IMG/VR virus record: IMGVR_UViG_3300022864_000001
Coordinates: 52,029-116,028 of that record
Reading direction: 5' to 3' (one strand)
DNA from: a virus
DNA length: 64,000 nucleotides
Below, piece after piece: positions 2,480 to 64,000 of this stretch; positions within the stretch are counted from its first letter, which is position 1; each line of letters starts with the position of its first letter. Under the pieces are notes generated by a model. It worked only from the letters and a program-made list of their open reading frames with translations. It did not search any database and was not told where the DNA came from. The position numbers and the translations under genes are program-made.

Positions 2480-5400
2480 CTACGAAATACCTGTCGTCCG
2501 TCGTATTTCGCGCCACAGCTCCTGCGCGAGAAGCGAAACATCTCTGTCATCCCTGATGGTCGTCCCGTTGAGGTTGATGGTAACGTTGGGGACAGATGCC
2601 ATCCCCCCCAGCGCCTCACTCTCTCCAATGCCCAACGTGGGCGGCAGGCCAAAGCCGGGTAATCTGCCCAGCCCCGCTATGCCGTGGTTGAATGCTGCTG
2701 TAGTATTGGCCATGTAATCTTCAACCCACTTTTCGTCGGGCAGCTCAGAGAATGGCCCCCACTCGGCAGGCGATGAGGGGAACAGTCCTGCTAGGGCTGC
2801 AATCTGCGCCTCGACTAGCCCAAGCCCCGCTGCTAGTCCACTTGCCAGTTTGTCCATGTAGTTATAACCAGGGTCCCACCAGGTGCTAGTGGCAGGCAAG
2901 TTTGAGACGCTTACTGCTGGTATTACAAAGTTGCTCATCATAGCCGCAATGCCTTGGTAATAATCTACAGCGCCAAACTTCAATCCGCCAGCCATGGCAG
3001 AGGCCAGCGCAAAACCCCAAGTATACCACTCATTCCACGCCACCGTCTTTGATGGCTGCACCTCTGTTTTAGTATCGCTCACTGCTGTTGTAACGTTTCC
3101 GAGATATTGGCCTATGCCAAGGGCCAGATTATCAGTATATCGTGCCCCTCGGTATTTCCAATCGTAATGGTCTACCAGGACACCCCCACCTGTATGCGGC
3201 ACTGTTAATTTAGTGTTAACGACACCAACTGCTGTTGAGACAGTAGTCGCTGAGCCTGATAGCCCCCCCGCCAAAGCAATGCCGTAGCCGGCCCCAGCAT
3301 CTGTCCATCCCTTCGTAGCGGGAAGAGCAGTTAAACCTCCGCCAATAGCGATGCCCACATCCGTTACAGCAGTATCTATATCTGTGTCCGCATCTCCCAA
3401 CCCGTCTGCAAGCGCCTGGAACAATTGCAAGATGAGATCAAGATATTCGTCGAGCGTCTCGGTAGATGGCAAGTCGGCGTCTGTTAGTGCCGTCAAAAAA
3501 CCCAGCGCGGCGGTAAGCCCCGTTACCATGGTCCCGATCTTCTCAGTAAACCATGTCACTGTGTTTACAGTATCAGGGCCGAGGTCATCGACAATCCAGT
3601 TGTTCATTGTCGTGATAATGAAGCCAATGGCGTCTGTGAAGTGGCTGACCTTCTTCTCGAACCATATAGGGGGTGTGTCGCCCTCAAACTCTGGTAACGT
3701 GGCATCAGCCAGCTTGCCAATGACGGTCAGTCCTGCCGACAGTGCCGTGAATAGGTTGGTCATCACACCACTGAATGTATCGGTAATGGTGACTTCTTTT
3801 GCGTCAAGCCCTTGGGCAAACGTATGCATATCGCCAAATATGAGATTGACTTGGCGTATGAAGAACCTGATCTTCCCATCGGTTGGGCTAAACAGGCCGC
3901 CAATACCACTTACCAGCAAAAGGGCTTCGTTGAGGCCAGTCATCAGTGCCCCTAGCGTGGTGCCAAAAGACGTAGTGAGCAGTAATCCCTCTGCCGAGAA
4001 GTTGGCGCCCGCACCTACGTATTCGCCCGTGCCCGTGAGCCACTGGTAGAAATGGTTGAAGATGTCTTCTACGTCTTCTATGAAGTCGTCTACGAAGGTA
4101 TCAAGTGGGCTGGCGTAGTAGCCCAAGTTTTTGAATATGTCCATTGCCGCGGACAGCCCGCCAAAGATGGCGCTTAGCGCAGTGCCCCACGCTATTACAG
4201 AGTCAAACTGGCTGGCTTCTTCCTCGGTCTGCGGATAGGTTGTCGTAATGTGGGTATAGAGTTTGTCAAATACACCCGTGGCCCACGTTGTAAATTCGGT
4301 CCATGCCTTGTCGGGGTCTACAAAGGTAGCAACATCGGCGGCAAGCGAGAGCGCCCCGCTCAGGCCAGACATGATGCTGCCCAGGGCACTACCCCAGGCA
4401 TTGACGAGGTCTAGCCCATCCTTCGTATAGACGTGTTGCCCATCGTCTGTTACGTGTTCTTCTGTGACCCACAGGTAGACAATGTCGAATATGTCCGTAA
4501 CCCAGGTAAAGAATGAGGACCAGATGGTATCGCTGGGTGCCGCCCAATCTTCGGACAGCGCGAACTCGGCGGCGGCTTGTATGCCTTGCACAAGCGCGGA
4601 TAGTGCGTCACCAAACGCGCCGACCAGGGCCATCTCTTTATCTGTCCATTCAGTTCCCGCAAGCCAAAAATAAAATGAGTTGAAGACAAAAGTGACCCAA
4701 TTGAAGAACTCAGACCAGACTTCATCGCCAGGGGCTACCCAACCTGCGGCCAGTGTAAAGTCGGCAGCAGCCTGCAAGCCCTGTACGAGCGAAGACAGCG
4801 CATTGCCCCATGCTTCGACTAGGGCAAACTCTGTTGCATCCCAGCCCCTAATCTCTAACCAGCCCTTGATTTTGCCGAGAAGTAACCAGACCCACTTGTA
4901 GAACGGGTCCCATATATCGGCGGCGGGCGCTGTCCAATCTTCTGCCAGCGTGAAATCAGCAGCGGCCTGTAATCCCTGTATGAGCGAAGATAGCGCGTCA
5001 CCAAATGTGCCGACCAAATTGAGTTGTTCCTCTGTCCAGCCCTGGCCCGTTAAGTACCCCAGGACTTTGCCGAAGAGCAATATAACCCACTTGTAGAATG
5101 GATCCCACACATCAGCGGCGGGGGCTGCCCAGTCTTCTGATAGCACAAAGTCAGCAGCGGCCTGTAAGCCCTGCATGAGTGAAGACAATGCGCCTGCAAA
5201 TGCGCCGACTAAATCAATCTGGTCTTTCGTCCACTCACTCCCGTCTAGCCAGCCGTAAAAGTCTGCGAAGACCTCTTTGACCCACGCAACCAATTTGTCC
5301 CATGCGTCTTCTGGCGGCTTCGTCCAGTCGGCGCGTAATTCAAATTCCGCGACTGTAGTCAGTCCCTCCATTAGTCTAGACAATGCGCCTGCAAATGCGC

Positions 5401-13668: not shown

Positions 13669-14700
13669 CTAATCCCTCCACGTTCCTAACTTGCGCAGCA
13701 TCTTGGCTGCACGATGTGCAGCATGTTCCCACGTCCAGTTGTCGTAGACATACTCAGAAGCGCGTTGGCCTATGAGATAAGCCTCGTGCTGATTATCATA
13801 ACACCACTGCATCATATCTGTCATAACGTCTTTGTCCGGCGTATGGCCAAATTGGTCACACTCATAAGACGCGCTAGACGTAACGACGCGTTCTTGTCCT
13901 ACAATGGGTATCACCAAGTTATGTTCTTCTCGGACAAACTCAGCCATACCACTAGCTTTAGGGGCGATTACACACAAACCTGTTGCCATTGCCTCTAGGG
14001 GCATTAGCCCAAAGCCCTCACCGCGAGAAGGATATACCATCGTATCGCACATGGCCATGGCTTGGACCAGCTCGTACCAGGACAAGTTGCCCTGCAAGAA
14101 CTTGATCTTGTCATTCTTGGTCTTGTATGGCACGCCGTCCTGTGACATCTTTACGACCAATTCACAATCGGGCAGGTTCAGTTTGTCAAATGCCCGCATG
14201 ACGTCTACTGGCCCCTTGCGCGAGGGTAGGCCGTCAGTCCAGGCAAAGAACCTGTATGGTCTATCACCACGCCTGGCGGGTCGTTCAGGGTCTTCCCTGT
14301 CAATGAACGGGTATCGGTTGGGCTCGAAGCCGTATCCGCTTACCAAGATAGGCAAGTGTTTATCTGCTTCTAGCATTACGTCACGTACAAACTCGCTAGG
14401 AACCCAGATGTGACGGGCCAGTCTGTATAGCGGCAGAAGCGCTTTTGGCAACGGTCGGCACTCTACCATTGTGTGCCAGATTAAATCTGGGTTGTAGCGA
14501 GGCCCGGTGAGCCACGCATAAGGCACAGCTACGACCACACGCCAGTCGTGGTCCAGCGAAAACCTGTCACACAGCGAGATGTCGTCAACGTACTTTTCCA
14601 GAGAATGCGCGAGCATCATTCCCACGCGCCCGTAGCCACCTGCTTGGCTCGTCATTAGACTGCCCCAGGCGAGCTTCATTGGTTGCAGTCCATAACCCAA
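13669..14700 (-). CDS. Glycosyltransferase family 4 (GT-B)
   Basis: GGYG N-terminus, RKG, YPSRGEGFGLMPLEAMATG. Confidence 0.92.
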   Translation of the reverse strand: MGYGLQPMKLAWGSLMTSQAGGYGRVGMMLAHSLEKYVDDISLCDRFSLDHDWRVVVAVPYAWLTGPRYNPDLIWHTMVECRPLPKALLPLYRLARHIWVPSEFVRDVMLEADKHLPILVSGYGFEPNRYPFIDREDPERPARRGDRPYRFFAWTDGLPSRKGPVDVMRAFDKLNLPDCELVVKMSQDGVPYKTKNDKIKFLQGNLSWYELVQAMAMCDTMVYPSRGEGFGLMPLEAMATGLCVIAPKASGMAEFVREEHNLVIPIVGQERVVTSSASYECDQFGHTPDKDVMTDMMQWCYDNQHEAYLIGQRASEYVYDNWTWEHAAHRAAKMLRKLGTWRD

Positions 14701-14930
14701 CAGCTGGAGTCGTCCAACAGGCCCATATGGTTGTCGCCTGGCGCTAAACGTTCTAGCGGCGCTAAGCGTTCTAGGGCCGTAGCAATGCGTTCCAACGCGC
14801 TAGCTATCCTGTCTTCTGGCGTTACTGCTGTTGTTACTTCACCAAGAGGCCACGCCTCCCACGCATTTGTCCCGTAGTACTGCCGACCACTGTCGCGAAA
14901 TTCGTCGTAACCCTGAACTGATACCGACAT
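14676..14930 (-). CDS. Hypothetical protein
   Basis: SD GAGGAGGG; short coiled coil RIASALERIATALE. Confidence 0.55.
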   Translation of the reverse strand: MSVSVQGYDEFRDSGRQYYGTNAWEAWPLGEVTTAVTPEDRIASALERIATALERLAPLERLAPGDNHMGLLDDSSCWVMDCNQ

Positions 14931-14970
14931 CTAACCCTCCTCAACGCTCACGGCGTTCTTTTCGTTAGTC

Positions 14971-15192
14971 TCAACAACTCAGCGCGGGGGCTTCTACCCC
15001 CGGTACAAACTTGCACGCAATGGGTTGCCCAACAGGCCGCCCCTGTCGCGCCAGCAATTCTGTCATGGCAGCATATGTCGCATGGGCGTCCCCGCACATC
15101 TCTGGGCCAAGAACGTTATACATCCAGCGCGCGCAACCAATGAAGAGACAAGCCCTCTCTAGCGTTAAGACATCAGCTCGCGACAGGGTCAT
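14971..15192 (-). CDS. Hypothetical protein
   Basis: ATGA overlap with the upstream gene. Confidence 0.5.
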   Translation of the reverse strand: MTLSRADVLTLERACLFIGCARWMYNVLGPEMCGDAHATYAAMTELLARQGRPVGQPIACKFVPGVEAPALSC

Positions 15193-15884
15193 AGCCGATA
15201 GCCGCGCCCCCTCATTTCCTCAACATCTTCTGTCAGCAACCCAGATACGTCTGCGATGCTATTATTGCCGCGCCTGTACACAACTGAGTGTCGAACAGGC
15301 CATTGCCGAGTGCCAAGGACTATATCGTCGGCATCTCTTGATAGGCGGCGAGTGCCTCTGATCTCAACGTCCCAAGGCGATTCGCCCGGAATGAGATGCT
15401 TCAATAGCAGTTCCTTTCTCCACAAGCCCGTTAGCAAGCTCATGTGGTACGGTGATGCTGGGTCTGACTTTACGAGATCCAGCCGATCAGTCCAGCCATG
15501 CTCTGACATATTCGGGGCATAGAGGCGGTCGGTGCATAGATCAATCTTTAGAACGCCCCTGTGTTGGTGCATGTAGTTATACAGGATTCTAATTGCCGCA
15601 TCATCTACCGGTCGTACTAGCCAGTAGTCTTCAAGCATGAAGACGAATACTTCTTCGGACACCATCCCCAGGAACTTGATGAATGCGTCCGACCACTTGT
15701 CAATCGGATAGTCAGCCATGTCGCCCAAGGATACGAAGCTAAAGTTCGGCGGCAGCATGAAGTCGGGGTGCTTGAAACCGCCAACTACGACCCGCTGCAC
15801 TGGACTCCAGTATCTATTAAACAAATACGCGAAGGGCTGCAAGGCGTGCAAATAGTGGTCACAGGTGAGTACAAGGACCCCCAC
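15189..15884 (-). CDS. Putative GT-A fold glycosyltransferase
   Basis: VLVLTCDHY, FMLEDYWL (DxD-like), GLWRKE, SPWDVE. Confidence 0.65.
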   Translation of the reverse strand: MGVLVLTCDHYLHALQPFAYLFNRYWSPVQRVVVGGFKHPDFMLPPNFSFVSLGDMADYPIDKWSDAFIKFLGMVSEEVFVFMLEDYWLVRPVDDAAIRILYNYMHQHRGVLKIDLCTDRLYAPNMSEHGWTDRLDLVKSDPASPYHMSLLTGLWRKELLLKHLIPGESPWDVEIRGTRRLSRDADDIVLGTRQWPVRHSVVYRRGNNSIADVSGLLTEDVEEMRGRGYRL

Positions 15885-25248: not shown

Positions 25249-25728
25249 TCAGTCGTCGGGTTTGCCATCCAGAGACGCCAGCGCCGTGTCTTCCAGGGCC
25301 TCTTGGGCCGCTTCGTCAGCAATCTCTTGTAATGCCACTACGAACCGATTGTCCACAGCCGCTTGCACGTCAGCTTTAGTAATACGTTCGTTGCGTCCCG
25401 TGCCCGTAACTTGACGCAAATCTATCGAGAATTCTCCTGCGAGCTTTCTTGCCGCCGCGGTGGCTTCTGGTTCGTCGGGTTCAGGAATGACAGGGACTTC
25501 TGTATCCAACGTTACAAAGCCCTTCTCGACCAAGCCGCGAGCATACCGGCCACCAGCTACAATAACAATTTCGTCAGGCTCGACCCAACCTATAGCTTTG
25601 TGGTCAGGCCCGGCCAGGACACTCCTGACGAGTACCCTCACTCTTACGCCGCGTGTTTCTTGCTTCTTCGGTTTCGCTAGGGCGTTGATTCCGTCTACCC
25701 ACTGCTGGGGTGTCATTCTCTTGGGCAT
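25249..25728 (-). CDS. Head-region protein with an E3-binding (PSBD) domain
   Basis: ATAAARKLAGEFSIDLRQVTGTGRNERITKADV matches the 2-oxoacid dehydrogenase E2 peripheral subunit-binding pattern. Confidence 0.8.
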   Translation of the reverse strand: MPKRMTPQQWVDGINALAKPKKQETRGVRVRVLVRSVLAGPDHKAIGWVEPDEIVIVAGGRYARGLVEKGFVTLDTEVPVIPEPDEPEATAAARKLAGEFSIDLRQVTGTGRNERITKADVQAAVDNRFVVALQEIADEAAQEALEDTALASLDGKPDD

Positions 25729-53719: not shown

Positions 53720-54349
53720 ATGGCAGAACGCACAAAAGCGGAACGGAACGGATACCGCGACAAGAAACCCGAATCAACGCCAAAAGAGAGCAAATAATGC
53801 CAGAAAACTGAAATTTCAACTAGCAAAATATCGCATTTGCACCAAATCCCGCAAAATGGAACGGAACAAAAGTGCAACTACCAACACCAAAACAGGCCAC
53901 AGTGTCAGGCACAGGCGTTCCGCTCCACGCTCCCAGGGGCAACGCAACGAGCCGACAGCACAGAGCGACAGGCAATAAGGACAAAGAAGGCCCAAAACGG
54001 GAATCTGGTCTGGGAACAGGTAGAACAGCGACTTATGTAAACTGGACATAATGTTGGGGTGGGGGGTGTTATGTCTACCCGCGCGCGCCCCTGCACGCTG
54101 GCCCGGCGTGTGCTATATGCATTGCGATGCACATTCAGACTATATATGATATGTAAGCTGAACATGTGTTCTACACTACGTGTACAATCGATTGTACTCA
54201 CGCCATAGTTATGCGCGATACTCTCAGCTTGTTATGTCTTGTGTTAGCGAATTGCCTATTGACAACGTGGTCCAGATGCATCATAATGGTTACAGTGTAT
54301 CATATGGTACACTATAATGTACGACTAGATATATCCTGGGAGGGATACA

Positions 54350-55240
54350 ATGTCCAGCAAGAATCAAGACACGACTGCTAATAGCACGGCAGACGTGACG
54401 GAAATCGGTGAGAATGAGAAGACCGCGAAGACGCAAGAGGAAATACTCGCTGGGTACGCGGTGGAAGTGAACGGCAAGACCCTGGCCGAATACGAAAGCT
54501 TGATCCATGAAACGTGGAACGTATCCACGTTAGCACGTCTGAAAGTCGGTATGCTATTGTCCATAGTTGTGGACAACAAGATGCTTGACGGAATAGACGT
54601 CAAGTTTTCCGAATGGGTCCAGGATCAGTTTTCAATTAAACCGTCATACGCGTATTTGCTCATGCGTGTGTGGGCAGACAAAGAAATCCGTCTGCTAGTC
54701 CAGGATCATGCCATGCCGCTTGAAGCGGCTGGAAACGCGTTGTCGCTGGGGACGAAATACGGTACCGGCGCAAGAAAAGAACTGACGGACTACGCACTCG
54801 TTGCTGATGGCACGGTTTGCAAATCCGCTAACGTGCTACGACGTAAAGCTGTAGAAATCAGAACGAAGGAGAACGCTCCAGCAGAAGCTCCAGCGCCGGC
54901 GTCTCCATCAGACGAGCTACGCGCCGCATTGTCTGTACAACGTGTGCTAGCGCAGGAGCGCACACGCTTGATGAGTAGCGTCAAGGCAATTGACGTCCGC
55001 GCCAGTGCTAACAATGACGAAATCGCCCGATTGACAATCCTGGTCAAAAGCCTGGCCGGCGATGTGGAAACCGAACCGGAAACCGAAGCTGAACCGGATC
55101 AACCGAATGCCACGCGCGCGGCTATGATTATGGCCACGAAGCATAACGTGGATTTGGACGATGTGACCGGTAGCCTGGCCGGCGGACGTGTGAACGTCCA
55201 GGACGTCAGGGACGCCATCAAGGCTGGACAAACCGCATAG
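54350..55240 (+). CDS. DUF3102-like putative DNA-binding protein with a C-terminal E3-binding (PSBD) domain
   Basis: RLKVGMLL...FSEWVQDQFSIKPSYAYLLMRV; coiled coil; NATRAAMIMATKHNVDLDDVTGSLAGGRVNVQDV. Confidence 0.7.
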   Translation: MSSKNQDTTANSTADVTEIGENEKTAKTQEEILAGYAVEVNGKTLAEYESLIHETWNVSTLARLKVGMLLSIVVDNKMLDGIDVKFSEWVQDQFSIKPSYAYLLMRVWADKEIRLLVQDHAMPLEAAGNALSLGTKYGTGARKELTDYALVADGTVCKSANVLRRKAVEIRTKENAPAEAPAPASPSDELRAALSVQRVLAQERTRLMSSVKAIDVRASANNDEIARLTILVKSLAGDVETEPETEAEPDQPNATRAAMIMATKHNVDLDDVTGSLAGGRVNVQDVRDAIKAGQTA

Positions 55241-55255
55241 TCTAGCACGAACACA

Positions 55256-55292
55256 GAAACCCTACCACAGATTCAACGTGGTAGGGCTTCTT
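55256..55292 (+). terminator. Probable intrinsic terminator
   Basis: CCCTACCAC-N9-GTGGTAGGG followed by CTTCTT, right after the stop. Confidence 0.6.
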
Positions 55293-55304
55293 CGCGTCTA
55301 CAAT

Positions 55305-55452
55305 CTACACCTAAGCCTAAGCCTACACCTAAGCCCACGTGTATACTGAAACGTCGCATACCACACGTCCACGACCTCGCAGACCACCTGGCCACGACCT
55401 CGCAGGAGCATATGCTCACGACCTCGCACACACACACGACCACGACCACACG
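55305..55452. repeat. Iteron-like direct repeats
   Basis: (TACA)CCTAAG repeats, then CACGACCTCGCA at 55370, 55393 and 55417, plus degenerate CACGAC copies. Confidence 0.75.
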
Positions 55453-55578
55453 TATCCTGTAACGTCACAGAATCCCCCACCCTTGACAATGACGTCAAGA
55501 TGTGCTATAATGTATACAGATGAAGCAGCAACCGCAGCAGCAACCGACAAGTCCAATCGATTGCACAAGGGGGAAACG

Positions 55579-55923
55579 ATGTACACCACGCTCTACACGT
55601 CCACAGAGCACTTTGACCACGAGAAGATGATGCAACTGCTTCTCAACCGCAACATTCTCTGCAATGTGTTCCCAATGCAGAGTGTCGCGCAGCGCCGGGA
55701 AACCGGCGAATGCTTTATCGAGACCGGCGCCAAAGTTGACATCTTCGACATCGCGCCGGACGCATTGATCCAGCTATGGACATCTATGCGGGATCACCTG
55801 GGCATTCACTGTCTGTACATTGAGTGCGACGGCTATTCCAATTGTATCTGCAACTGGGCACCGTATCGCCAGCAGTGCGCTTCCAACGGCATGGTGCCAC
55901 TGGAGTGCAGCGAGTACGACTAG
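55579..55923 (+). CDS. Early hypothetical protein (Cys-rich)
   Basis: SD AAGGGGG after palindrome A; stop followed by palindrome A. Confidence 0.7.
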   Translation: MYTTLYTSTEHFDHEKMMQLLLNRNILCNVFPMQSVAQRRETGECFIETGAKVDIFDIAPDALIQLWTSMRDHLGIHCLYIECDGYSNCICNWAPYRQQCASNGMVPLECSEYD

Positions 55924-55977
55924 TCCAATCGATTGAAGCCCCGCGGTAGTGAACCGCGGGGCGAAAGGAGTACGGCA

Positions 55978-56304
55978 ATGAAACGAAAGTCTGTCATTCT
56001 GGCAATCCTGTTGTTGGTAGTTGTGTTCGCGAGCGGGTGGTGCCCCATTGAGATTTGGGATCAAGTAGTGGGGCCACAACTTACCCAGGGCGAGTTAATC
56101 GCTTTGCTGGGTCCGCCCGATTTCGTTGGCACGTTTGCTAACGAGTATTATGACGGGCCACTATGGCAATACTACGATTTGACAGTAGATTGCGCCGGTG
56201 ACGGCACGGTCTACAATCAAAACTTCCTGTTTGAAAACGGAAGGGTTTTCTACGACTGGGTTGAATCCACACGGCGAGTCAATCTTTTCCTGCCGCTCAT
56301 CTAG
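55978..56304 (+). CDS. Exported protein with a SmpA/BamE-like motif
   Basis: Signal peptide MKRKSVILAILLLVVVFA; LTQGELIALLGPPD...WQYY...FENGRV. Confidence 0.65.
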   Translation: MKRKSVILAILLLVVVFASGWCPIEIWDQVVGPQLTQGELIALLGPPDFVGTFANEYYDGPLWQYYDLTVDCAGDGTVYNQNFLFENGRVFYDWVESTRRVNLFLPLI

Positions 56305-56325
56305 TCCAATCGATTGGAGGATAAC

Positions 56326-56583
56326 GTGAAACCATACAACGAGCAAGTGCTAGGACGTCCAGCAACTCTGTTTACAAAACCTGGCCAAACCATCAAGTGG
56401 TCTTGGACTGATTCGCAGAACTCCGGATCCGTCCCAAACCAGTCTGTTGACGTGTTCGCAGACGACAGCGACAGCAACATATTCGAAGACTCTGAGAAGT
56501 GCGCCGCCGGTTATTGGAAGGACAAGCTTGTTGTCACGTGGCATACGCAGTGTGACACGTGGTGGGTTTACAGCAGCCTGTAG
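56326..56583 (+). CDS. Early hypothetical protein
   Basis: GTG start after CAATCGATT-GGAGG. Confidence 0.65.
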   Translation: MKPYNEQVLGRPATLFTKPGQTIKWSWTDSQNSGSVPNQSVDVFADDSDSNIFEDSEKCAAGYWKDKLVVTWHTQCDTWWVYSSL

Positions 56584-56655
56584 CATCCAATCGATTGAAC
56601 GCCGACATTGACAACATCAGCCCCGTCTGCTATGGTGGGGCCAAGGAGAATTGAT

Positions 56656-56871
56656 ATGAAACCGTATCTCAAGATCAAGAAGGGCGCCTCGCGCCGAATG
56701 AGAGCGGACGCCAACCCGACTTTCGAAGAATGGATGGCTGCCCTAGACCGCATCCTGTGGAAGTACCGCGGACTGAGTATCTACGACCTGCCCGATTGCC
56801 AGTATCGTAACTGGTTCGACAGCCGCCTCAAGCCGGCATTCGCAATCAACCGCGCACTACGAAACGCATAG
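56656..56871 (+). CDS. Early hypothetical protein
   Basis: SD AAGGAG; TFEEWM..LD......GLS..DLPD..YR.WFD motif. Confidence 0.7.
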   Translation: MKPYLKIKKGASRRMRADANPTFEEWMAALDRILWKYRGLSIYDLPDCQYRNWFDSRLKPAFAINRALRNA

Positions 56872-57149
56872 CAGAAACAGGCCACAGGAACAGGCCCAAA
56901 TCCGTCAGGGGAACAGGCCCCATCGGTCATCATGTAGTCAGGCCCTCTCGCGACGCCGGGGCTACGGCTCGCGGCGCAAGGGGAGGCCCTTGACAACACA
57001 GGCCCCATACGTCATAATGGGGTCAGGCCCCTCCTGCCGCGGCCTGCTGCGGCACGCTTGTGGGGTGGTTAGCTAAATTGCACCACCAACGGCGGGAGGG
57101 GTCAAATACGCTTGTCGCAGAGACAGGCCAATCGATTGGAGAGGATACG

Positions 57150-57350
57150 ATGACCTACAACGAGTTTGCCAAGTTTTACCTTGAACACTACGAGGAGGCG
57201 CCCGCCGGAGAGGCAGGGTTCTGGATCGAGGTGCTAGACGGAGACCTGTTCCACTTACAGCAGGTCATTGGGCAATCAGGCACGTACTTGGTTGCGACGG
57301 ACGTCCTGACAGGTGAGGTCATTCGAGACGAGAGTCTGTGGCAGGAGTAG
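57150..57350 (+). CDS. Early hypothetical protein
   Basis: SD GGAGAGG overlapping palindrome A. Confidence 0.65.
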   Translation: MTYNEFAKFYLEHYEEAPAGEAGFWIEVLDGDLFHLQQVIGQSGTYLVATDVLTGEVIRDESLWQE

Positions 57351-57437
57351 CGTCTGATCAGCCTCTTGCCCATCGGGAGGTGGGCAGTGGGCTGCGCAGA
57401 TGGCGCGGCACAATCGATTGAACAAGGAGAAGATACG

Positions 57438-57629
57438 ATGAAGATCAGCCGTTACGACAACGCGCAGGTGAGTGTTCAGGGAACCACGATGACTATCACC
57501 GTGAACCTGGACGAGGAACAGGTGGACGTCCGCCCATCAGCATCGGGCAAGACAATGGTTGTTGCCACGACAGGCGGCGCCAAGAAGATCAACGGGGTCT
57601 CTGTAAATCTAACAGTCTATCGTAAGTGA
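57438..57629 (+). CDS. Small conserved protein (PSASGKT.VVATTGG motif)
   Basis: SD AAGGAG after palindrome A. Confidence 0.7.
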   Translation: MKISRYDNAQVSVQGTTMTITVNLDEEQVDVRPSASGKTMVVATTGGAKKINGVSVNLTVYRK

Positions 57630-57637
57630 TCCCCTCA

Positions 57638-57835
57638 GCCTTCTGTCACTGGTGGAGGCCAGTGGCAGAGGGCAAGCTGCACACCTTGGCGCGCCTCACT
57701 GGCCTTGTGCCGTGAGCGGGCTAGGTCCGTTGGAAGACGGGCGACTAACATCATGGGGTGGCAGCCATGGTGGGTGGGACGTGGCAAGGTGTGCAGCTTC
57801 GCGGAATATGTTGCAGCCGATGAAAAATATTCCGT
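57638..57835 (+). ncRNA. Candidate structured non-coding RNA
   Basis: 15-bp perfect stem 57674-57688/57785-57799 enclosing three hairpins, with flanking hairpins; strand assumed from context. Confidence 0.5.
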
Positions 57836-57999
57836 TGCGTAGACACATTGTAGATACCCGACAAACACAGTAGACTTAACAGAACATAAACGTACCCGTC
57901 CGGTATGCTTCTTTGTCACAAGGCATACTCTACTGGGATGGTAGACAATGTGGCCGTTTCGGTCATAGGGGCAGGCTACAATCGATTGGAGGCATTGAC

Positions 58000-58209
58000 G
58001 TGAACATTGCGAATTACAGGGTGCTCGTCTGGAAGAACGATGGCAGCTATGGCTGTCGGGCGTGGGCACACGCTGGGAGCAGGCGGACGATAAAGCAGTG
58101 CTTCGACAATGCCGTCGCGATTGCTGGCAAGCGCAACTGGCGGAGGGTGGTTGCCATTGCAGGCGACTATCTAACTGGCGAGACTGTGGCAGAGTGGAGG
58201 GCATCGTGA
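58000..58209 (+). CDS. Early hypothetical protein
   Basis: GTG after CAATCGATT-GGAGG. Confidence 0.6.
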   Translation: MNIANYRVLVWKNDGSYGCRAWAHAGSRRTIKQCFDNAVAIAGKRNWRRVVAIAGDYLTGETVAEWRAS

Positions 58210-58430
58210 AACAGGGAGATGTTTGTTGGGTAGTAGACTATACAGGGGCGATTGAAAAGAAAGTCGTCAAAACGCGGGTTGCGCGAGTTATCGATGCGCA
58301 TCCGGGCCGGTCTGGCGTGGTTATCAAGACAGAGGAAGGAAACCACGTTATGTCGGTAGCAGTATTCGACCACGCGCCGAAACTGGTGACGCTGTTGGAC
58401 GAATACGGCAGTTTCACAAAGTGGGTTTGA
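58206..58430 (+). CDS. Early hypothetical protein (SH3/KOW-like)
   Basis: GTGA overlap; KQGDVCWVV. Confidence 0.6.
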   Translation: MKQGDVCWVVDYTGAIEKKVVKTRVARVIDAHPGRSGVVIKTEEGNHVMSVAVFDHAPKLVTLLDEYGSFTKWV

Positions 58431-58454
58431 GTACAATCGATTGGAGGGATTGAG

Positions 58455-58784
58455 ATGGCGTGGACAACATGCGAGAGAGACGGAAAACTAGCAATCACGT
58501 TAGGCTGGGGCAAGGACTACCACACGCCCTCTGAGACCTGCGAGACCAGCATCAGCACCATTGACGCCGACCGATGGACGGGGTTGATGGGTAGGGCGGT
58601 GGAGTTTACTGGCAACATCGCTGTGATCTGGATTGATAACAGACCCTGGCGGATGGATACCAGCGAGTGGAAGCGGGTTACAGAAACCCGGCCCGTCAAG
58701 AAACCACGCAAGGGCAAGCGGCAGGGTATGCCCTATGACTGGGTTTGGGATACAGGGAGCTGGCGCAGGGCTTGGGTAGACTAA
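58455..58784 (+). CDS. Early hypothetical protein (Trp-rich)
   Basis: SD GGAGG overlapping palindrome A. Confidence 0.65.
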   Translation: MAWTTCERDGKLAITLGWGKDYHTPSETCETSISTIDADRWTGLMGRAVEFTGNIAVIWIDNRPWRMDTSEWKRVTETRPVKKPRKGKRQGMPYDWVWDTGSWRRAWVD

Positions 58785-58819
58785 CACGCGAAAACAGTTC
58801 AATCGATTGGAGGCCCAAC

Positions 58820-59194
58820 GTGAACGACAAGATGTATTACGCCGCGTTGCATGAAGCAGGCCACGCAGTGATGGCCAGGAAAGTATGCGGTTATGAGGGG
58901 CCAATTGAGGTGTCTCTGTCCCGTTGCCGCTTCCCTGATGGGTTTGCCCGCTGGGAGGATTTCTTGTTAGTCAAGTTGGCAGGGTTCGCAGCATGGGCAG
59001 TGCACGAGGAGGCCAAGGTCAACGCGCTTCCAGGCTACGTGCGGCTGGGCGCTTTGTTTACTGATGTCGCCGACCTGCTTGACTTTGGCGTAGCCATGGA
59101 AGACCTGTTCATCCCATTTGACGTTGCGGTTGCTAACCTAGAACTGCACTGGGGCGAGGTGCAGAAGTTGGCAGCCCGACTGTTGGACGATTAG
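58820..59194 (+). CDS. Small Zn-metallopeptidase-like protein (M41/M50-like HEAGH)
   Basis: AALHEAGHAVMA...LAG..A...D. Confidence 0.65.
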   Translation: MNDKMYYAALHEAGHAVMARKVCGYEGPIEVSLSRCRFPDGFARWEDFLLVKLAGFAAWAVHEEAKVNALPGYVRLGALFTDVADLLDFGVAMEDLFIPFDVAVANLELHWGEVQKLAARLLDD

Positions 59195-59292
59195 GGGCTT
59201 TGTTGCAAAGCCTTGACAAGCAGGGCTGAACGTGTCATAATAGATACAGACGTTTGGGACACTTTGGGATAACGCACAAGGAGGAGGCTACA

Positions 59293-60666
59293 ATGAATGA
59301 GCGGCTTGTCCTGCCGCAGGACCACTTTAAAAGACGGGTAAAAAATCAGTACGGCGATGTGCTATTTGCAATCGCCCGCGAGGTGGTCCAGAACAGTGCA
59401 GACGCGGGAGCAACCCGCGTTGACTTCACAGTTCTGGGCAATGGGTATCGCGCCCAAGACAACGGATGCGGTATGACGTTGGAAGAGGCAAGAAAGAGAT
59501 TCCTGCACCTGGGAGGCACATCTAAGGCAGACGGTGGGTTTACGGGCGTATTTGGGGCAGCAAAAGAGGTGCTGGCCCTGGCACATGATGAGTGGGCTAT
59601 ACGCGGGCAAGGCTTCACTACCACTGGCCACGGCGCGGGCAACATCGTCAGTAAGCCAGGCGGGATTACACGCGGGTTCTCCATTGAGGCAAGGTCGCCT
59701 GAACGCAAATGGGGATGGATGCGGGGCAAAATCGAGGGGCTCAGCCTGTTATCCAACGTTAGCATCTCTATCTACCAGGGCGGAGAGAAGATGCCCAAGG
59801 GCCGCAAGTTGCGCGATAGCCAGCTTGTCAAGGAGTACGAGTTTGGCAAGCTGTATGTGGTGAAAAATAGGCTGCGCCCCAACGAGGAGCGAGGCCAGAT
59901 GTATGTCCGCAGCAATGGACTCTTTACCTGCACATCGTGGATCGGTGGGGAGTGCCCATTCGTCTTCTACTTGGAGTTGGAGGGCAGTTCGACCGAGACA
60001 CTGACCGAAAACAGGAATTACCTGGCCAACGATGTACGACGAATGGTCATGGCAGATGTCCAATCGATTGCAAAACAGCCAGAGAGGCTGGAGCGTCGGT
60101 CTAAGCCAAAGACAGTCAGGCTGTACGGGAATGTTGCTACGTTTACCATGCCAGCGGCAGGTGCTGGCCCGACGTGTGCAATAGTACCAACAACAGGGGG
60201 CAACAGCACAACCCATGCCGAGATGGGCAGCCTAGACGTGGTGGACGAGGTAGGCCCGGCCCTGTGGCGCAGGTCGTTCCTGATGGTAGATGCTAAGAAT
60301 ACCAAGATGACCACGCCGAAAGGCAACTTCAGGCCGATGCTGAAGTCTACGCTGGAAGCGTGGCAGCACACCATCGGGCTAATTTGCAATGTGACCAAGA
60401 TAAGCAGGCCGTTGGTAGGATTGGTCTGTGACGATGCGGTAGCGGGCTGCCATACCACGTGGAGAGGCCAGCACGCAGTATGCATCAACCCCAGTCAGAG
60501 AAGGCTATCACCGTTTGCATTCATGTCGTTGGCAGTACACGAGCTGGCCCATATGTCGGTCGCCTCGCACTGCCAAGACTACGAGAATGCGCGGATGGCC
60601 ATCGACTTGGCAATTGGCGACTCGGCAGAAATGGTCATCCATTGTGTGAGGGGTTATCTGTCTTGA
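59293..60666 (+). CDS. GHKL (HATPase) ATPase with C-terminal HExxH
   Basis: REVVQNSADA, DNGCGM, GGTSK, GVFGAAKE; VHELAH...H near the C-terminus. Confidence 0.8.
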   Translation: MNERLVLPQDHFKRRVKNQYGDVLFAIAREVVQNSADAGATRVDFTVLGNGYRAQDNGCGMTLEEARKRFLHLGGTSKADGGFTGVFGAAKEVLALAHDEWAIRGQGFTTTGHGAGNIVSKPGGITRGFSIEARSPERKWGWMRGKIEGLSLLSNVSISIYQGGEKMPKGRKLRDSQLVKEYEFGKLYVVKNRLRPNEERGQMYVRSNGLFTCTSWIGGECPFVFYLELEGSSTETLTENRNYLANDVRRMVMADVQSIAKQPERLERRSKPKTVRLYGNVATFTMPAAGAGPTCAIVPTTGGNSTTHAEMGSLDVVDEVGPALWRRSFLMVDAKNTKMTTPKGNFRPMLKSTLEAWQHTIGLICNVTKISRPLVGLVCDDAVAGCHTTWRGQHAVCINPSQRRLSPFAFMSLAVHELAHMSVASHCQDYENARMAIDLAIGDSAEMVIHCVRGYLS

Positions 60667-60718
60667 CAAACAGGCCGCGATGTGTCATAATGGATACAGA
60701 GACTACAAGGAGGCTACA

Positions 60719-61183
60719 ATGAACGCGAGTAAACTGCTGAATGAGGTAGGGCTTGGTGGGCTGGGGGCAATCTTCGGCGATATGTCCATCGCTGAGGGAG
60801 AGATTAAGAAGGCCCAGACCAGGCATCCAGAACAGGCTGACGCCATCTGGAACACCTTTCGGTCACTGCAACGGCCAGTGGTGTTGACGGGCAAGGCCGT
60901 GACCCTGTATCAGGCCCATTGCGCCGAGTTGCTGGACAGGGTTGCCAGTGGCGGGGACGTTGACTTTGCCACAAAAGCAGAGGTTGTCGCGGTGTTGTCC
61001 GACGCGACGTTGAGAACACGCCTGCGCGCCCCTGCTGAGCATCTGTACCAGAGGCTCTTTTCGGAGCTGGGCTTTTCTTTTGGGGAACTTGAACCGTACC
61101 AATACGGTTCTGCGTGGGATACCGAGGAGCAAAACAGGGTGTTCTCGCAGATCGCAAGGCGACTAGATACTAAGCGGCGGTAA
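60719..61183 (+). CDS. Early hypothetical protein
   Basis: Own promoter and SD AAGGAGG; LYQAHC.ELLDRV..G.D...T.AE. Confidence 0.7.
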   Translation: MNASKLLNEVGLGGLGAIFGDMSIAEGEIKKAQTRHPEQADAIWNTFRSLQRPVVLTGKAVTLYQAHCAELLDRVASGGDVDFATKAEVVAVLSDATLRTRLRAPAEHLYQRLFSELGFSFGELEPYQYGSAWDTEEQNRVFSQIARRLDTKRR

Positions 61184-61230
61184 CGAGTCTTTGCGCAAAG
61201 ACTCCAATCGATTGTAACCAGAGGGCTGCT

Positions 61231-61410
61231 ATGATATGCGACCAGTGCGGAGAGAAGTACGAAGAAGAAGAGATGCAGCTCACGCGGTGTGGTCTTAACC
61301 TGTGTGGCCTGTGCTACGAAGACCACCGCAGAGAGGGCTGCACCGCCTGCGCCGAGGATGAGGCATTTGAGGCAGGGGACTATCTGTGTGATATAGGGAG
61401 AGGGACATGA
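61231..61410 (+). CDS. Small Cys-rich zinc-finger protein (59 aa, not in track)
   Basis: MICDQCGEKY...RCGLNLCGLCYEDH...CTAC; stop overlaps the next ATG. Confidence 0.6.
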   Translation: MICDQCGEKYEEEEMQLTRCGLNLCGLCYEDHRREGCTACAEDEAFEAGDYLCDIGRGT

Positions 61411-61634
61411 CCGACATCACAAAGATTCCGCTAGACGAACTGCGCGCAGACAAAAGAGCAAGCGAGGAAGATGCGCTTTTATGCTTAAATGCCATAGCGC
61501 TAGGGATTGGCACATACAGTGGAGAAAATACACAGAAGCGACTGGATGTCAACGTGGCAATTGTTGTCAAGATTGACGAGGAACTGAAACGCCGAAAGGA
61601 GGAGAGGCATGGAAAGGATTCCCTGGACAGTTGA
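61407..61634 (+). CDS. Early hypothetical protein
   Basis: Helical; I..EL.RR motif shared with the next ORF. Confidence 0.6.
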   Translation: MTDITKIPLDELRADKRASEEDALLCLNAIALGIGTYSGENTQKRLDVNVAIVVKIDEELKRRKEERHGKDSLDS

Positions 61635-61836
61635 TGACCTAGCCGAGAAAACCACTAAGAGACTACGCGCGATGAAGCATTGGAGAGAAGTAGGCTTGGG
61701 GCATCATCAAGCCAATCTCGCAGCGGGAGAGGTAATATATCCTAGCGGATATGCTGTTCAAACGGTGATTGAGATTGAGCAGACATCCCTCGCCGCGATT
61801 GATGCAGAACTAGCACGCAGGGTTGACAATCCGTAA
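61609..61836 (+). CDS. Early hypothetical protein
   Basis: SD AAGGAGGAG; IDAELARR. Confidence 0.6.
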   Translation: MERIPWTVDDLAEKTTKRLRAMKHWREVGLGHHQANLAAGEVIYPSGYAVQTVIEIEQTSLAAIDAELARRVDNP

Positions 61837-61866
61837 CGGGTATGTCATAATAGAAAGGAGGCTGCA

Positions 61867-62067
61867 ATGTTGAAAATCAGTAACCAAGCGAATGGCTACA
61901 AGATCAAACTTAGCAATCCGGGGTCAGGCAAGCGCGGGAAGAGCATATTCGCGCAGAACGTAGCTGAGTTACACGAGGCCATAGACCATTATTACATGGC
62001 TACTTTAGGGCATTGGGGCGAGAATGAGAACTGCCCGCTTTGCCGCGACATGCAGCAGCGTAGTTAG
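61867..62067 (+). CDS. Early hypothetical protein
   Basis: Own promoter, SD AAGGAGG; H...H...CPLC. Confidence 0.65.
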   Translation: MLKISNQANGYKIKLSNPGSGKRGKSIFAQNVAELHEAIDHYYMATLGHWGENENCPLCRDMQQRS

Positions 62068-62155
62068 TACAATCGATTGGAGACCATCGTTACCGGGGGG
62101 CTGACAACCCCAACGTCCGAGACACAAGAGTACAATACACCAAGGAGGAGACAAG

Positions 62156-62350
62156 ATGAAGAGGCCAACATGTATTGAGATAGCCAACAATTTTGACCTG
62201 TGGGGGGAGTACTTTGATCCCCACGCAACCACGACGCAAGAGGGGTTCGATGGCGGTTCGGCAGAGGAACGCCTTGCTCTGCTGCATGAGTACTACCCTA
62301 TCGATGATTGCAACTGCGGATGGGCAGAGCACAACGGGGGTGTAAAGTGA
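62156..62350 (+). CDS. Early hypothetical protein
   Basis: SD AAGGAGGAG; EIANNFDLWGEYFDP. Confidence 0.65.
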   Translation: MKRPTCIEIANNFDLWGEYFDPHATTTQEGFDGGSAEERLALLHEYYPIDDCNCGWAEHNGGVK

Positions 62351-63447
62351 ACACGAAAGACTTAAAACGCGCATTGGGCCAGTCCAAACCATTCATCTCA
62401 CGGTATTCTACGTTGCCCATTCTGAATAACGTAGCCCTCTATACTGGCGACGGGCGCCTCTGGATAGAGGCAAGCAACCTTGAAATCTTCTGCCGCATTC
62501 CCGTAGCCCACGCAGGCGAATTTGCGGGCATCACGGTAGAGCACAAGGTGCTGGCCAAAATCGCGGGCGCATTGGACTGCCCAACGTTAGACTTCGCCAG
62601 TGACAATGACCATCTTGTCATCACTGGCACAGGGACCACAGCCAGACTGCCGGGGATTGACAGAGACGAGTTCCCCATTACCCCGCGCAAAGCGGACAAG
62701 ATTATGGCCGTGATGGGAGCAGGTGTCTTGAAGCGCGTTGCAACGTTGGTCGCACCGTCCGCACTAACAGACGAATCTCGGCCTGTGCTGATGCAGGTAT
62801 GTGTAGAGTTGACAAAAGAGGGTGCGCTATTCATTGCTTCCGACGGCTATATGCTATCGAAGCTAGGCGTCCAGGCAAACGGCGACTACGCGGCTATCGA
62901 CGATGAAGCTACGCTGCTAGTCCCCGCCAAAGCATGGAAGGCTATCGCGGGATTGGCCTCGTCAGCGAACGAGGACGTGACGCTGGGCATAGTGTTGGAC
63001 AAAGAGGGCGAGCCCCGGCAGGCCATGTTCAGTTTCGCATCAGGGGCGCAGGCCGTAGCTATGCTGTACAATATGTCCCCATTTCCCAAATGGCAGGATA
63101 TTTGGCCTGCGGCGTTTACGGGCAGCGCAGTTGTTACCAATCTGGGCAAAGCAATCAAGCCATTGCTGTCCCTGGCGGGCCGCGATTACCTCAAGTCCGC
63201 CTGGATATTTAGCGACGCGGGCCTACACATCAGCGCCAAGGGTGAGGACGGAGCCAGTATGGCACGCTCTGTTGAAGCGGTAGTTACGGGCGAACCGCTC
63301 ACCATTCACTTTGACATAACGCGGGTCAATGATTTACTCAAACGCAAGAAGGGAAACTGGACTCTGCGATATGGCACTGATTTTAGCCCTATGGTATTCG
63401 AGATGGGGGCCTGGGCCACCGCCGTGATGCCTATGCTAGACAAGTAA
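62347..63447 (+). CDS. dnaN: DNA polymerase III beta sliding clamp homolog
   Basis: STLPILNNV, ASNLE, DEFP, DESRPVL..V, ASDGY.L, FP.W..I.P, C-terminal VMPM. Confidence 0.85.
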   Translation: MNTKDLKRALGQSKPFISRYSTLPILNNVALYTGDGRLWIEASNLEIFCRIPVAHAGEFAGITVEHKVLAKIAGALDCPTLDFASDNDHLVITGTGTTARLPGIDRDEFPITPRKADKIMAVMGAGVLKRVATLVAPSALTDESRPVLMQVCVELTKEGALFIASDGYMLSKLGVQANGDYAAIDDEATLLVPAKAWKAIAGLASSANEDVTLGIVLDKEGEPRQAMFSFASGAQAVAMLYNMSPFPKWQDIWPAAFTGSAVVTNLGKAIKPLLSLAGRDYLKSAWIFSDAGLHISAKGEDGASMARSVEAVVTGEPLTIHFDITRVNDLLKRKKGNWTLRYGTDFSPMVFEMGAWATAVMPMLDK

Positions 63448-63457
63448 AGGAGCAGAA

Positions 63458-63916
63458 ATGACAGACAAACTAAAGGAACTAGAGAATCGCCGTACCGCGG
63501 CCTGCGCCAACTTCTGCGCAGGTGTCACAACAGAACACCTTGAGGCTGGTTGGAATCTGCCCGCAATACTTATGGTAGTGGCAGAAATAGGCAATCACAG
63601 CCACGACAGTGTTGTCAGGAACCTGGCACGGAGCATAACGAGATGTATGGGGGCAGTTGTGATCATACAGCGGGTTGACGACATTACAATTTCCCTTGTA
63701 GAGCAAGGGGATATGGTTGCAGTAGTATCGTCTAGCAACGCCTTTCGCTGGGCGCTGCTGTTTGCTGGCGCAGAGGGTACGTTGGCAGCACTCAAAGCAT
63801 TGCTGGAAGAGGCGGAGACAGTAGTAAGCCTCGACGGCTTCCGCCCCAGAGACTTTCATACCATTCGAGCGGCGCAAGATGCTGTCGCCGCCGCCGAGGG
63901 AGGGGGTGAAGACTAA
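63458..63916 (+). CDS. Hypothetical phage protein
   Basis: SD AAGGAG; RR.AAC.N.CAGVTTE.LE motif. Confidence 0.65.
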   Translation: MTDKLKELENRRTAACANFCAGVTTEHLEAGWNLPAILMVVAEIGNHSHDSVVRNLARSITRCMGAVVIIQRVDDITISLVEQGDMVAVVSSSNAFRWALLFAGAEGTLAALKALLEEAETVVSLDGFRPRDFHTIRAAQDAVAAAEGGGED

Positions 63917-63917
63917 C

Positions 63918-63992
63918 ATGGAACTGGCAATCGTTGCGTTGTTGCTTATGGGCGTTTGGCTGCTGCTACACGCGCTGGTCGGGGGGCGCTAG
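63918..63992 (+). CDS. 24-aa hydrophobic peptide
   Basis: MELAIVALLLMGVWLLLHALVGGR*; the TAG is followed by palindrome A like other cassettes. Confidence 0.45.
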   Translation: MELAIVALLLMGVWLLLHALVGGR

Positions 63993-64000
63993 TACAATCG

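Follow-up and report, generated by a model that had tools for sequence, protein, structure and literature searches.

What reads a short palindrome that recurs at one gene junction after another in the early region of a phage genome, and to what effect? This question is raised by a 64,000-nucleotide stretch of DNA (hereafter the window), comprising bases 52029–116028 of the 116,028-bp virus record IMGVR_UViG_3300022864_000001, in whose last 10 kb the 10-bp word CAATCGATTG marks the borders of a series of short genes; positions below refer to the window unless marked 'genome'. An earlier note on this DNA had offered three explanations: a multi-site repressor or roadblock system, recombination sites that let single-gene cassettes move as in an integron, and signals for RNA processing or translation control. 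The first of these is best supported by our analysis, in a form that is now more specific. The sites are 14-bp dyads, TnCAATCGATTGnA, which lie at or just after three promoters and elsewhere between cistrons, and we propose that they are operators for a dimeric protein that shuts off the early genes, with the product of the first early gene (the 54350 protein) as the candidate reader on the strength of its structural model. We give this reading about an even chance of being correct.

CAATCGATTG occurs 13 times exactly in the window, always within 54185–62079, and has no copy in the first 54 kb, just as had been counted before. The low chance expectation given at the time also held: dinucleotide-preserving shuffles yield an expected 0.11 copies per window, and none of 100 shuffles attained 13. 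One-mismatch variants are absent from the window, and the whole genome contains only three. The termini of the record share a 34-bp overlap, which indicates a circular assembly, so that the copy cut by the edge of the window (63995–64000) is completed at genome 29–38. In all, the circular 116-kb genome carries 18 exact copies. The five beyond the 13 start at genome 29 (the window-end copy), 3621, 10544, 10936 and 29532. They share with the 13 a plus-strand arm, which, judged by GC skew and the layout of open reading frames (ORFs), runs from window 54.1 kb across the record ends to genome 42 kb and encodes early and replication functions (clamp, helicase, primase, methyltransferases and homing endonucleases). 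The minus-strand arm, 64 kb of structural genes, has zero copies. Counted over the whole record, the word is thus confined to one arm and is not uniformly abundant; the coefficient of variation (CV) of the spacing of the 18 copies is 2.72, compared with 0.93 in simulations, and this value was reached in 0 of 5000 of them.

Position −2 is T in 16 of the 18 copies and position +2 is A in all 18, which makes the 14-bp dyad TnCAATCGATTGnA the repeated unit; a typical site reads GTACAATCGATTGGAG. Symmetry reaches ±7, and the only perfect 16-bp copy is the one at 54182–54197, GTACAATCGATTGTAC. The extended flanks and the perfect 16-mer had both been recognised in the earlier note, which placed the latter ahead of the first early promoter; more precisely, it stands in a divergent control region, with ~65 bp between it and the −35 hexamer of the downstream promoter at 54259. 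With gene starts picked by their Shine-Dalgarno sequence, 17 of the 18 copies are intergenic. The sole exception, at 60061 within a 457-amino-acid GHKL-ATPase-like ORF, is the one already allowed for. At six junctions, the gap from stop codon to site is 2–4 nucleotides (nt), namely at 55926, 56307, 56588, 58434, 62070 and the window-end copy (TAG, 2 nt), and nine copies continue directly into the GAG of a ribosome-binding site. The gap from site to start codon is 9–17 nt at 11 of the 18 copies. The genes enclosed by the sites have almost no match to known families.

RNA folding of 30-nt windows around the sites gave weak structures (mean −3.2 kcal/mol) that differ from copy to copy, with no consistent hairpin. 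Together with the symmetry out to ±7, this suggests that a dimer reads the site as double-stranded DNA, and we predict that the copies of TnCAATCGATTGnA most probably serve for the docking of a DNA-binding protein. A restriction-site signal was set aside as an explanation, given the mild depletion of ATCGAT outside the motif (8 seen against ~24 expected). In the genome as a whole, TCGA occurs 228 times where 449 would be expected, a roughly two-fold deficit that may reflect restriction-site avoidance.

The early 10 kb contains seven or eight promoters that are strong and sigma-70-like (TTGACA-17-CATAAT), and two further perfect ones are located at genome 289 and 3569. At three promoters a site occupies the classical position of an operator: site 10544 lies over the predicted start of the promoter at genome 10514, site 3621 at about +17 of that at genome 3569, and site 55554 at about +36 of the predicted start of that at window 55483. 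The remaining copies sit between cistrons with no promoter near, where a bound protein could act only as a roadblock, and the junctions that do bear promoters are mostly without a site. The site does not appear to be a promoter element itself; TACAAT is present in ten of the 18 copies and TCCAAT in the rest, and −35 partners are weak or missing. Site 13 is followed by a plus-strand gene of 64 amino acids that matches the Pfam anti-CRISPR family AcrF31 above the cut-off (E 3.7e-10), which gives the early region the look of a host-takeover and anti-defence module. Judged from this sequence match, the host may possess a type I-F CRISPR-Cas system, and an anti-defence role of the early region is suggested.

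On the operator reading, all copies of TnCAATCGATTGnA would form one regulon over early host-takeover and anti-defence genes. Transcription by host RNA polymerase would begin from the strong sigma-70 promoters on the early arm, and the reader would accumulate and then fill the 18 sites. Sites that overlap a promoter start or closely follow one (genome 10544, genome 3621 and window 55554) would block initiation or escape; at the sites between cistrons, elongating polymerase would be stopped in the manner of a stoperator, and the early genes would be shut off together after a short burst. We prefer this reading because it fits the observed symmetry and placement of the sites, the geometry of the promoters and the position of gene 54350, and it is from these features and a resemblance in fold that we infer binding, repression and timing.

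Table 1 Sites, promoters and associated features of the early region, in window coordinates.
Feature	Position	Strand	Context
Site 1	54182..54197		Perfect 16-bp palindrome GTACAATCGATTGTAC; divergent control region, 155 nt from a start
Site 2	55554..55563		In leader of gene 55579-55923, 15 nt ahead of ATG
Site 3	55926..55935		2 nt past stop; then GC-rich hairpin, then ribosome-binding site of gene 55978
Site 4	56307..56316		2 nt past stop; continues into GAGG, 9 nt ahead of GTG of gene 56326
Site 5	56588..56597		4 nt past stop; 10 nt upstream of −35 hexamer of promoter 56608-56636
Site 6	57129..57138		11 nt ahead of ATG of gene 57150
Site 7	57411..57420		17 nt ahead of ATG of gene 57438
Site 8	57979..57988		11 nt ahead of GTG of gene 58000
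Site 9	58434..58443		3 nt past stop; 11 nt ahead of ATG of gene 58455
Site 10	58800..58809		10 nt ahead of GTG of gene 58820
Site 11	60061..60070		Inside gene 59293-60666 (GHKL-ATPase-like)
Site 12	61205..61214		16 nt ahead of ATG of gene 61231; abuts second palindrome 61185..61204
Site 13	62070..62079		2 nt past stop; 76 nt ahead of gene 62156-62350 (Pfam AcrF31 match)
Window-end cut copy	63995..64000		Rest at genome 29-38; 9 nt ahead of ATG
Tandem sigma-70-like promoters	54259..54318	+	TTGACA-17-CATAAT and GTTACA-18-TATAAT, ahead of gene 54350
Perfect sigma-70-like promoter	55483..55511	+	12/12, with TG
First early gene	54350..55240	+	296 amino acids; first gene after perfect 16-mer and promoters
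Second-palindrome copy GAGTCTTTGCGCAAAGACTC	61185..61204		Directly abuts site 12 (joint span 61185-61214)

The 54350 protein, which had been named in the earlier note as one to try in a binding experiment, is most likely the best candidate reader of the sites, a standing that it owes to modelling and that is not an identification. Its model was built from a six-sequence alignment (predicted local distance difference test score 76 overall and 84–93 over residues 40–175) and comprises a ParB/Noc/KorB-like DNA-binding domain at residues ~30–175, a coiled coil at 186–236 and a C-terminal domain at 254–295 that resembles the peripheral-subunit-binding domain of E2 acyltransferases. The coiled coil, of ~50 residues, is plausibly the dimeriser. 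In a structure search of 48,161 representative chains, performed independently of Foldseek, the top matches of the model were ParB-parS (Z 9.3), Spo0J (Z 8.4) and KorB-operator (Z 8.3); the KorB-operator complex aligned over 111 of 114 residues with a root-mean-square deviation of 2.8, and longer KorB chains gave Z 7.2–7.4. A second structure comparison had ParB, Noc or KorB in all of its nine best rows, led by Spo0J-parS (Z 10.7), with the Noc DNA-binding domain aligned over 115 of 116 residues (Z 9.7). The parS and Noc sites are 16 and 14 bp long, respectively, and both are centred on CG. ParB, Noc and KorB all work from palindromic sites in multiple copies, to which the 18 exact copies of a 14-bp dyad compare well. 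Homologues of the 54350 protein are few, and no relative of the family was found in IMG/VR. A late-arm protein (25249-25728, minus strand) shares only the peripheral-subunit-binding-like C-terminal domain with it (E 1.2e-7), so this small protein-binding domain is used twice in the genome.

Several observations weigh against the 54350 protein as reader, and with it against the proposed operator reading. Foldseek also ranked ParB-parS first, with weak E-values of 0.4–2.5, and the fold scores of the model (Z 7.2–10.7) are under the safe level for matches between helical proteins. Sequence, profile and Pfam searches found no support for a ParB/KorB fold, and a six-frame search of the genome for ParB_N (PF02195), with E-values up to 0.1 admitted, found none. 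Only ~27 disordered residues precede the DNA-binding domain in the model; without the N-terminal CTPase domain of ParB, the protein cannot be a KorB-like sliding clamp. There is no site between the gene's own promoter and its start. Six other phages carry the word (see below), among them the cultured Rhodobacter phage RcTiptonus, and the 54350 protein has no sequence or profile similarity to the ParB-like gp23 of RcTiptonus or to any ORF of the six, in two of which, G213 and G214, ParB_N was not detected. One word with readers that lack detectable homology needs explaining, and fits a reader supplied by the host better.

Other classes of reader were also searched for. No helix-turn-helix, ribbon-helix-helix or repressor family was found in the ~80 proteins scanned, and the ribbon-helix-helix paralogues that had been read from the sequence beforehand received no confirmation from Pfam. 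A six-frame search of the phage genome for the LacI domain (PF00356) was negative at an E-value limit of 1, and no partition genes emerged in the searches made. A KorB family profile produced one match, which was discarded as it was at chance level and inside the clamp gene.

By analogy, the system would work most like two known ones, KorB with its operator OB and the Cluster A stoperators, yet it fails a defining feature of each, the CTPase clamp of the former and the oriented site of the latter. On the IncP plasmid RK2, the OB silencer is 16 bp long and precedes its target promoters by 4–10 bp in proximal positions and by 45 to >1,000 bp in distal ones (PMC11790492). There, as here, one palindromic operator is present in many copies on a mobile genome, both beside and far from promoters, and KorB silences sets of genes globally (PMC11790492; PDB 1r71, 8qa8). 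KorB has a CTPase clamp domain, whereas the candidate reader has none and no sliding clamp is expected of it. The site sequences differ as well, and OB belongs to a plasmid, while the present sites belong to a phage in which no integrase or partition genes were found in the searches made, and they are packed into the gaps between cistrons, immediately ahead of ribosome-binding sites, unlike OB. Cluster A stoperators, read by repressors of the L5 gp71 type, occupy many short intergenic gaps within operons and halt elongating polymerase (PMC9283540, PMC6550527), a placement shared by the array, in which 17 of the 18 copies are intergenic and most have no promoter-like site nearby. Their sequence is asymmetric and follows the direction of transcription, their reader is a monomer (PMC9283540, PMC4351075), and they serve prophage immunity; the present site, in contrast, is a perfect dyad, restricted to the early arm of a phage in which no integrase, resolvase or repressor family was found.

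If the operator reading is correct, the array would be a phage counterpart of the silencing of many genes through one operator that KorB exemplifies, carried out by a ParB-like DNA-binding domain that lacks the clamp domain and is aimed at early takeover and anti-defence genes, including the anti-CRISPR-like gene. It would also provide a concrete mechanism for early-gene shut-off in a phage without cultured relatives. In the literature searched we found nothing relevant on the 10-mer, and no account of the word, of its use across phage lineages or of a clamp-less candidate reader with a ParB fold.

At the DNA level this phage has no match among GenBank phages. Its clamp protein has only one distant match and its capsid protein only matches of 30–35% identity; homologues of its proteins at 47–71% identity do exist, those of the 54350 protein at 47–57% and those of the clamp at 65–71%. 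Scanning IMG/VR and metagenomes for relatives gave near-identical short contigs only. The word itself is more widespread and recurs in many unrelated phages. Scanning IMG/VR for the pattern turned up five copies on a 17.9-kb fragment whose capsid protein is 76% identical to that of Rhodobacter capsulatus RcF phages, and RcTiptonus (MW677527, 94 kb) carries 38 exact and 18 one-mismatch copies with the consensus T[G/A]CAATCGATTG[C/T]A, in the form TGCAATCGATTGCA. About 21 of the RcTiptonus copies are between annotated genes, often 4–30 nt before a start, and ~17 (about 45%) are inside genes. The repeat is not mentioned in the RcTiptonus genome paper. Since the word is repeated in this cultured phage, its reader and function can be tested in a laboratory system. 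Five further uncultured phage genomes from IMG/VR, of 77–134 kb, have 13–34 copies each, nearly all flanked TG..CA. In four of the six other phages tested (RcTiptonus, G214, G216 and G217) spacing is more even than chance (CV 0.41–0.64, P <= 0.005).

The RcTiptonus-type array, as found in RcF-like and related phages of 77–134 kb, shares with this phage the 10-bp core and the T and A at ±7, and differs from it in several respects. Its flanks are TG..CA, whereas here the flank is A or C and never G; its copies recur every 2–5 kb genome-wide, whereas here they form an early-arm cluster that is almost entirely intergenic. The intragenic share is nearly half in RcTiptonus, the only phage checked against its annotation, compared with one copy here. 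ParB_N is encoded in four of the six other word-carrying phages, RcTiptonus and three more. Between RcTiptonus ORFs and this phage, blastp found no similarity at E < 1e-3. The genes that this phage has in common with other word carriers are generic replication and methylase genes only, and no ORF family is common to all word-carrying phages except a DnaB-like helicase. The annotated DNA-binding proteins of RcTiptonus were considered as a shared reader and rejected, none being conserved across the word-carrying phages. As separate observations, three RcTiptonus copies fall in a 660-bp non-coding stretch (87284–87946) right after gp125, annotated as an immunity repressor, and gp126, and the intragenic copies of RcTiptonus often read xTG CAA TCG ATT GCA. 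A giant ORF of ~2400–2575 amino acids in the structural arm of this phage (2480-10207, minus strand) is similar by blastp to one in the provirus-like phage G216.

Operators of the LacI family have the form TGnAAnCGnTTnCA, in which ±6 is normally G and C. The resemblance of the sites to such operators, pointed out in the earlier note from their CG-centred symmetry, holds for their form: TGCAATCGATTGCA fits TGnAAnCGnTTnCA fully, and the sites of this phage keep the AAnCGnTT core, the outer T/A and the central CG, with G on the left at ±6 in 0 of 18. Among 120 sampled reference-genome loci with exact TGCAATCGATTGCA, 31–33 have a LacI-family gene within 400–500 bp, and no other regulator family recurs at these loci. 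Pfam identified LacI together with a sugar-binding core at word loci in Paracoccus (two genomes), Pseudoxanthomonas and Sphingomonas. In one genome of the family containing Paracoccus (G181, contig L254), GTACAATCGATTGTAC is found three times, at 3578, 6024 and 6046, identical to site 1 and surrounding a LacI-family gene and the promoter of an M24 peptidase/ABC transporter operon; here, the word is clearly a bacterial operator of the same sequence as the phage site. The question then arises whether the same sites are contested by regulators of phage and host. Across 201 genomes of this family, 30 carry TnCAATCGATTGnA, mostly once, compared with three that carry a reversed control pattern. The word is not abundant in the bacteria sampled, with 1–3 copies in each of five word-holding genomes and 0–3 in the genomes sampled overall, and for these genomes we rejected the idea of a host genome rich in it, which the earlier note had listed among the results that would count against its inference. 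In two other Paracoccus-family genomes (L255 at 3730, L256 at 3965), homologous serine recombinase genes begin 16–115 bp from the word, and at one of these loci it is doubled and beside a phage-type integrase; there it may serve a mobile element as a res-like site or an operator.

These loci bring a different reader into view, a LacI-family repressor of the host that senses a sugar or metabolite, which the phage, like others with the word, would borrow to gate or roadblock its early genes, or which the copies would draw off a host operon as decoys. We regard this as unlikely but as the main rival, and it best explains a word common to phages without a detectable common reader. This phage, RcTiptonus and G006 encode no LacI domain, and exact copies of the word are operators beside LacI-family genes in Proteobacteria, as seen at the sampled loci, in the Pfam-confirmed genomes and at the triple GTACAATCGATTGTAC. 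LacI/GalR operators, including the cre roadblock sites of CcpA, are CG-centred dyads of 14–16 bp like those described here, and repressors of the family bound inside transcription units can block elongation. The conserved G/C at ±6 is, however, not kept in this phage. With 0–3 copies per bacterial genome against 18–38 per phage, the regulons are small and local, and it is hard to explain why many phage lineages should depend on them. In addition, a phage-encoded candidate reader adjoins the best site. The broader proposal that the core recurs in unrelated phages because a conserved host LacI-family repressor reads it, which would tie early expression or genome silencing to a metabolite sensed by the host, or would make the copies decoys that switch on a host operon, strikes us as rather less probable again. 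A still smaller chance attaches to the sites being docking points for another symmetric DNA-binding factor with a part in genome organisation, replication, protection or marking and none in transcription. The even spacing in RcTiptonus, G214, G216 and G217 and the ~45% intragenic copies of RcTiptonus would suit such a role, for which the Cluster O mycobacteriophages offer a likeness: more than 30 copies of the 17-bp dyad repeat TGTTCGGNNNCCGAACA, with invariant arms, many of them intergenic and about a third intragenic (PMC4351075). A dimeric protein is predicted to bind these repeats, which have no link to rearrangements, in phages that are not obviously temperate (PMC4351075). Descriptively, the array would belong with these unexplained repeats, although they are genome-wide and not tied to start codons, and hence closer to the RcTiptonus-type array than to an early-arm cluster. 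A 64-kb late arm devoid of copies, and clustering at early junctions and promoters, fit gene control better than a structural role across the genome.

The same junctions could be read as signals in the messenger RNA (mRNA), either a translation-control or processing element upstream of the ribosome-binding site or one half of long-range duplexes between two copies. The short, 9–17-nt distance of 11 copies to a start and the nine that pass into GAG speak for it, as do the computed energy of −14.5 kcal/mol for the duplex of two paired copies and a resemblance to the start-associated sequences of Cluster K mycobacteriophages (named in PMC4351075). Those sequences, thought to be translational, are nevertheless asymmetric and set at a fixed short distance before starts, whereas here the motif is symmetric, one copy is intragenic and site 1 lies upstream of promoters, far from any start. 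An RNA signal would not be expected to have perfect two-fold symmetry out to ±7, a consistent local hairpin is missing, and in other phages the word is also found inside genes; this third explanation of the earlier note is weakly supported at best, and we consider it very unlikely. Least probable by our estimate, and poorly supported, is the integron-like option, by which the sites would be recombination points for the gain, loss and shuffling of single-gene cassettes. It would account for identical copies bounding short genes of no known family, and the word does occur near serine recombinase genes in the two Paracoccus-family genomes mentioned above. Yet neither a serine recombinase (PF00239, Resolvase) nor a tyrosine recombinase (PF00589, Phage_integrase) was found in six frames of the whole genome, extending what had been observed for the window. 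A site that is fully symmetric, including its central CG, has no direction, so that inversions would be expected, yet all genes are on one strand. The one early gene in common with phage G215 has no flanking sites there, the similar Cluster O repeats are not involved in rearrangements (PMC4351075), and the intragenic copies of RcTiptonus and the even spacing in four of the six other phages are at odds with cassette borders. Breakpoints could be compared with sites in one variant contig, the sole structural variant found (L014, an IMG/VR contig of 6250 bp), which is 99% identical to the genome over the parts compared, 114051–3244 and 14106–15664. It jumps from genome ~3244 to ~14600 through paralogous GIY-YIG homing-endonuclease cassettes, skipping 11.4 kb, which means that the contig is a deletion variant or that the assembly was joined at a repeat; its junction is in the GIY-YIG repeats and not at a site.

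A second dispersed palindrome, AGTCTTTG-YR-CAAAGACT, has 20 copies genome-wide, of which those in the window are at 61188, 46812, 46512, 45593, 36890 and 27184 and the others at genome 274–41843. It is found mostly between stop codon and ribosome-binding site on the early arm, with few copies on the late arm, and forms a consistent hairpin of 6–9 bp, unlike CAATCGATTG. Where it touches site 12, the arrangement is loosely like the KorA operator beside OB; a KorA-like partner was not identified here. Several copies of this second palindrome adjoin strong promoters (genome 274 and 18505).

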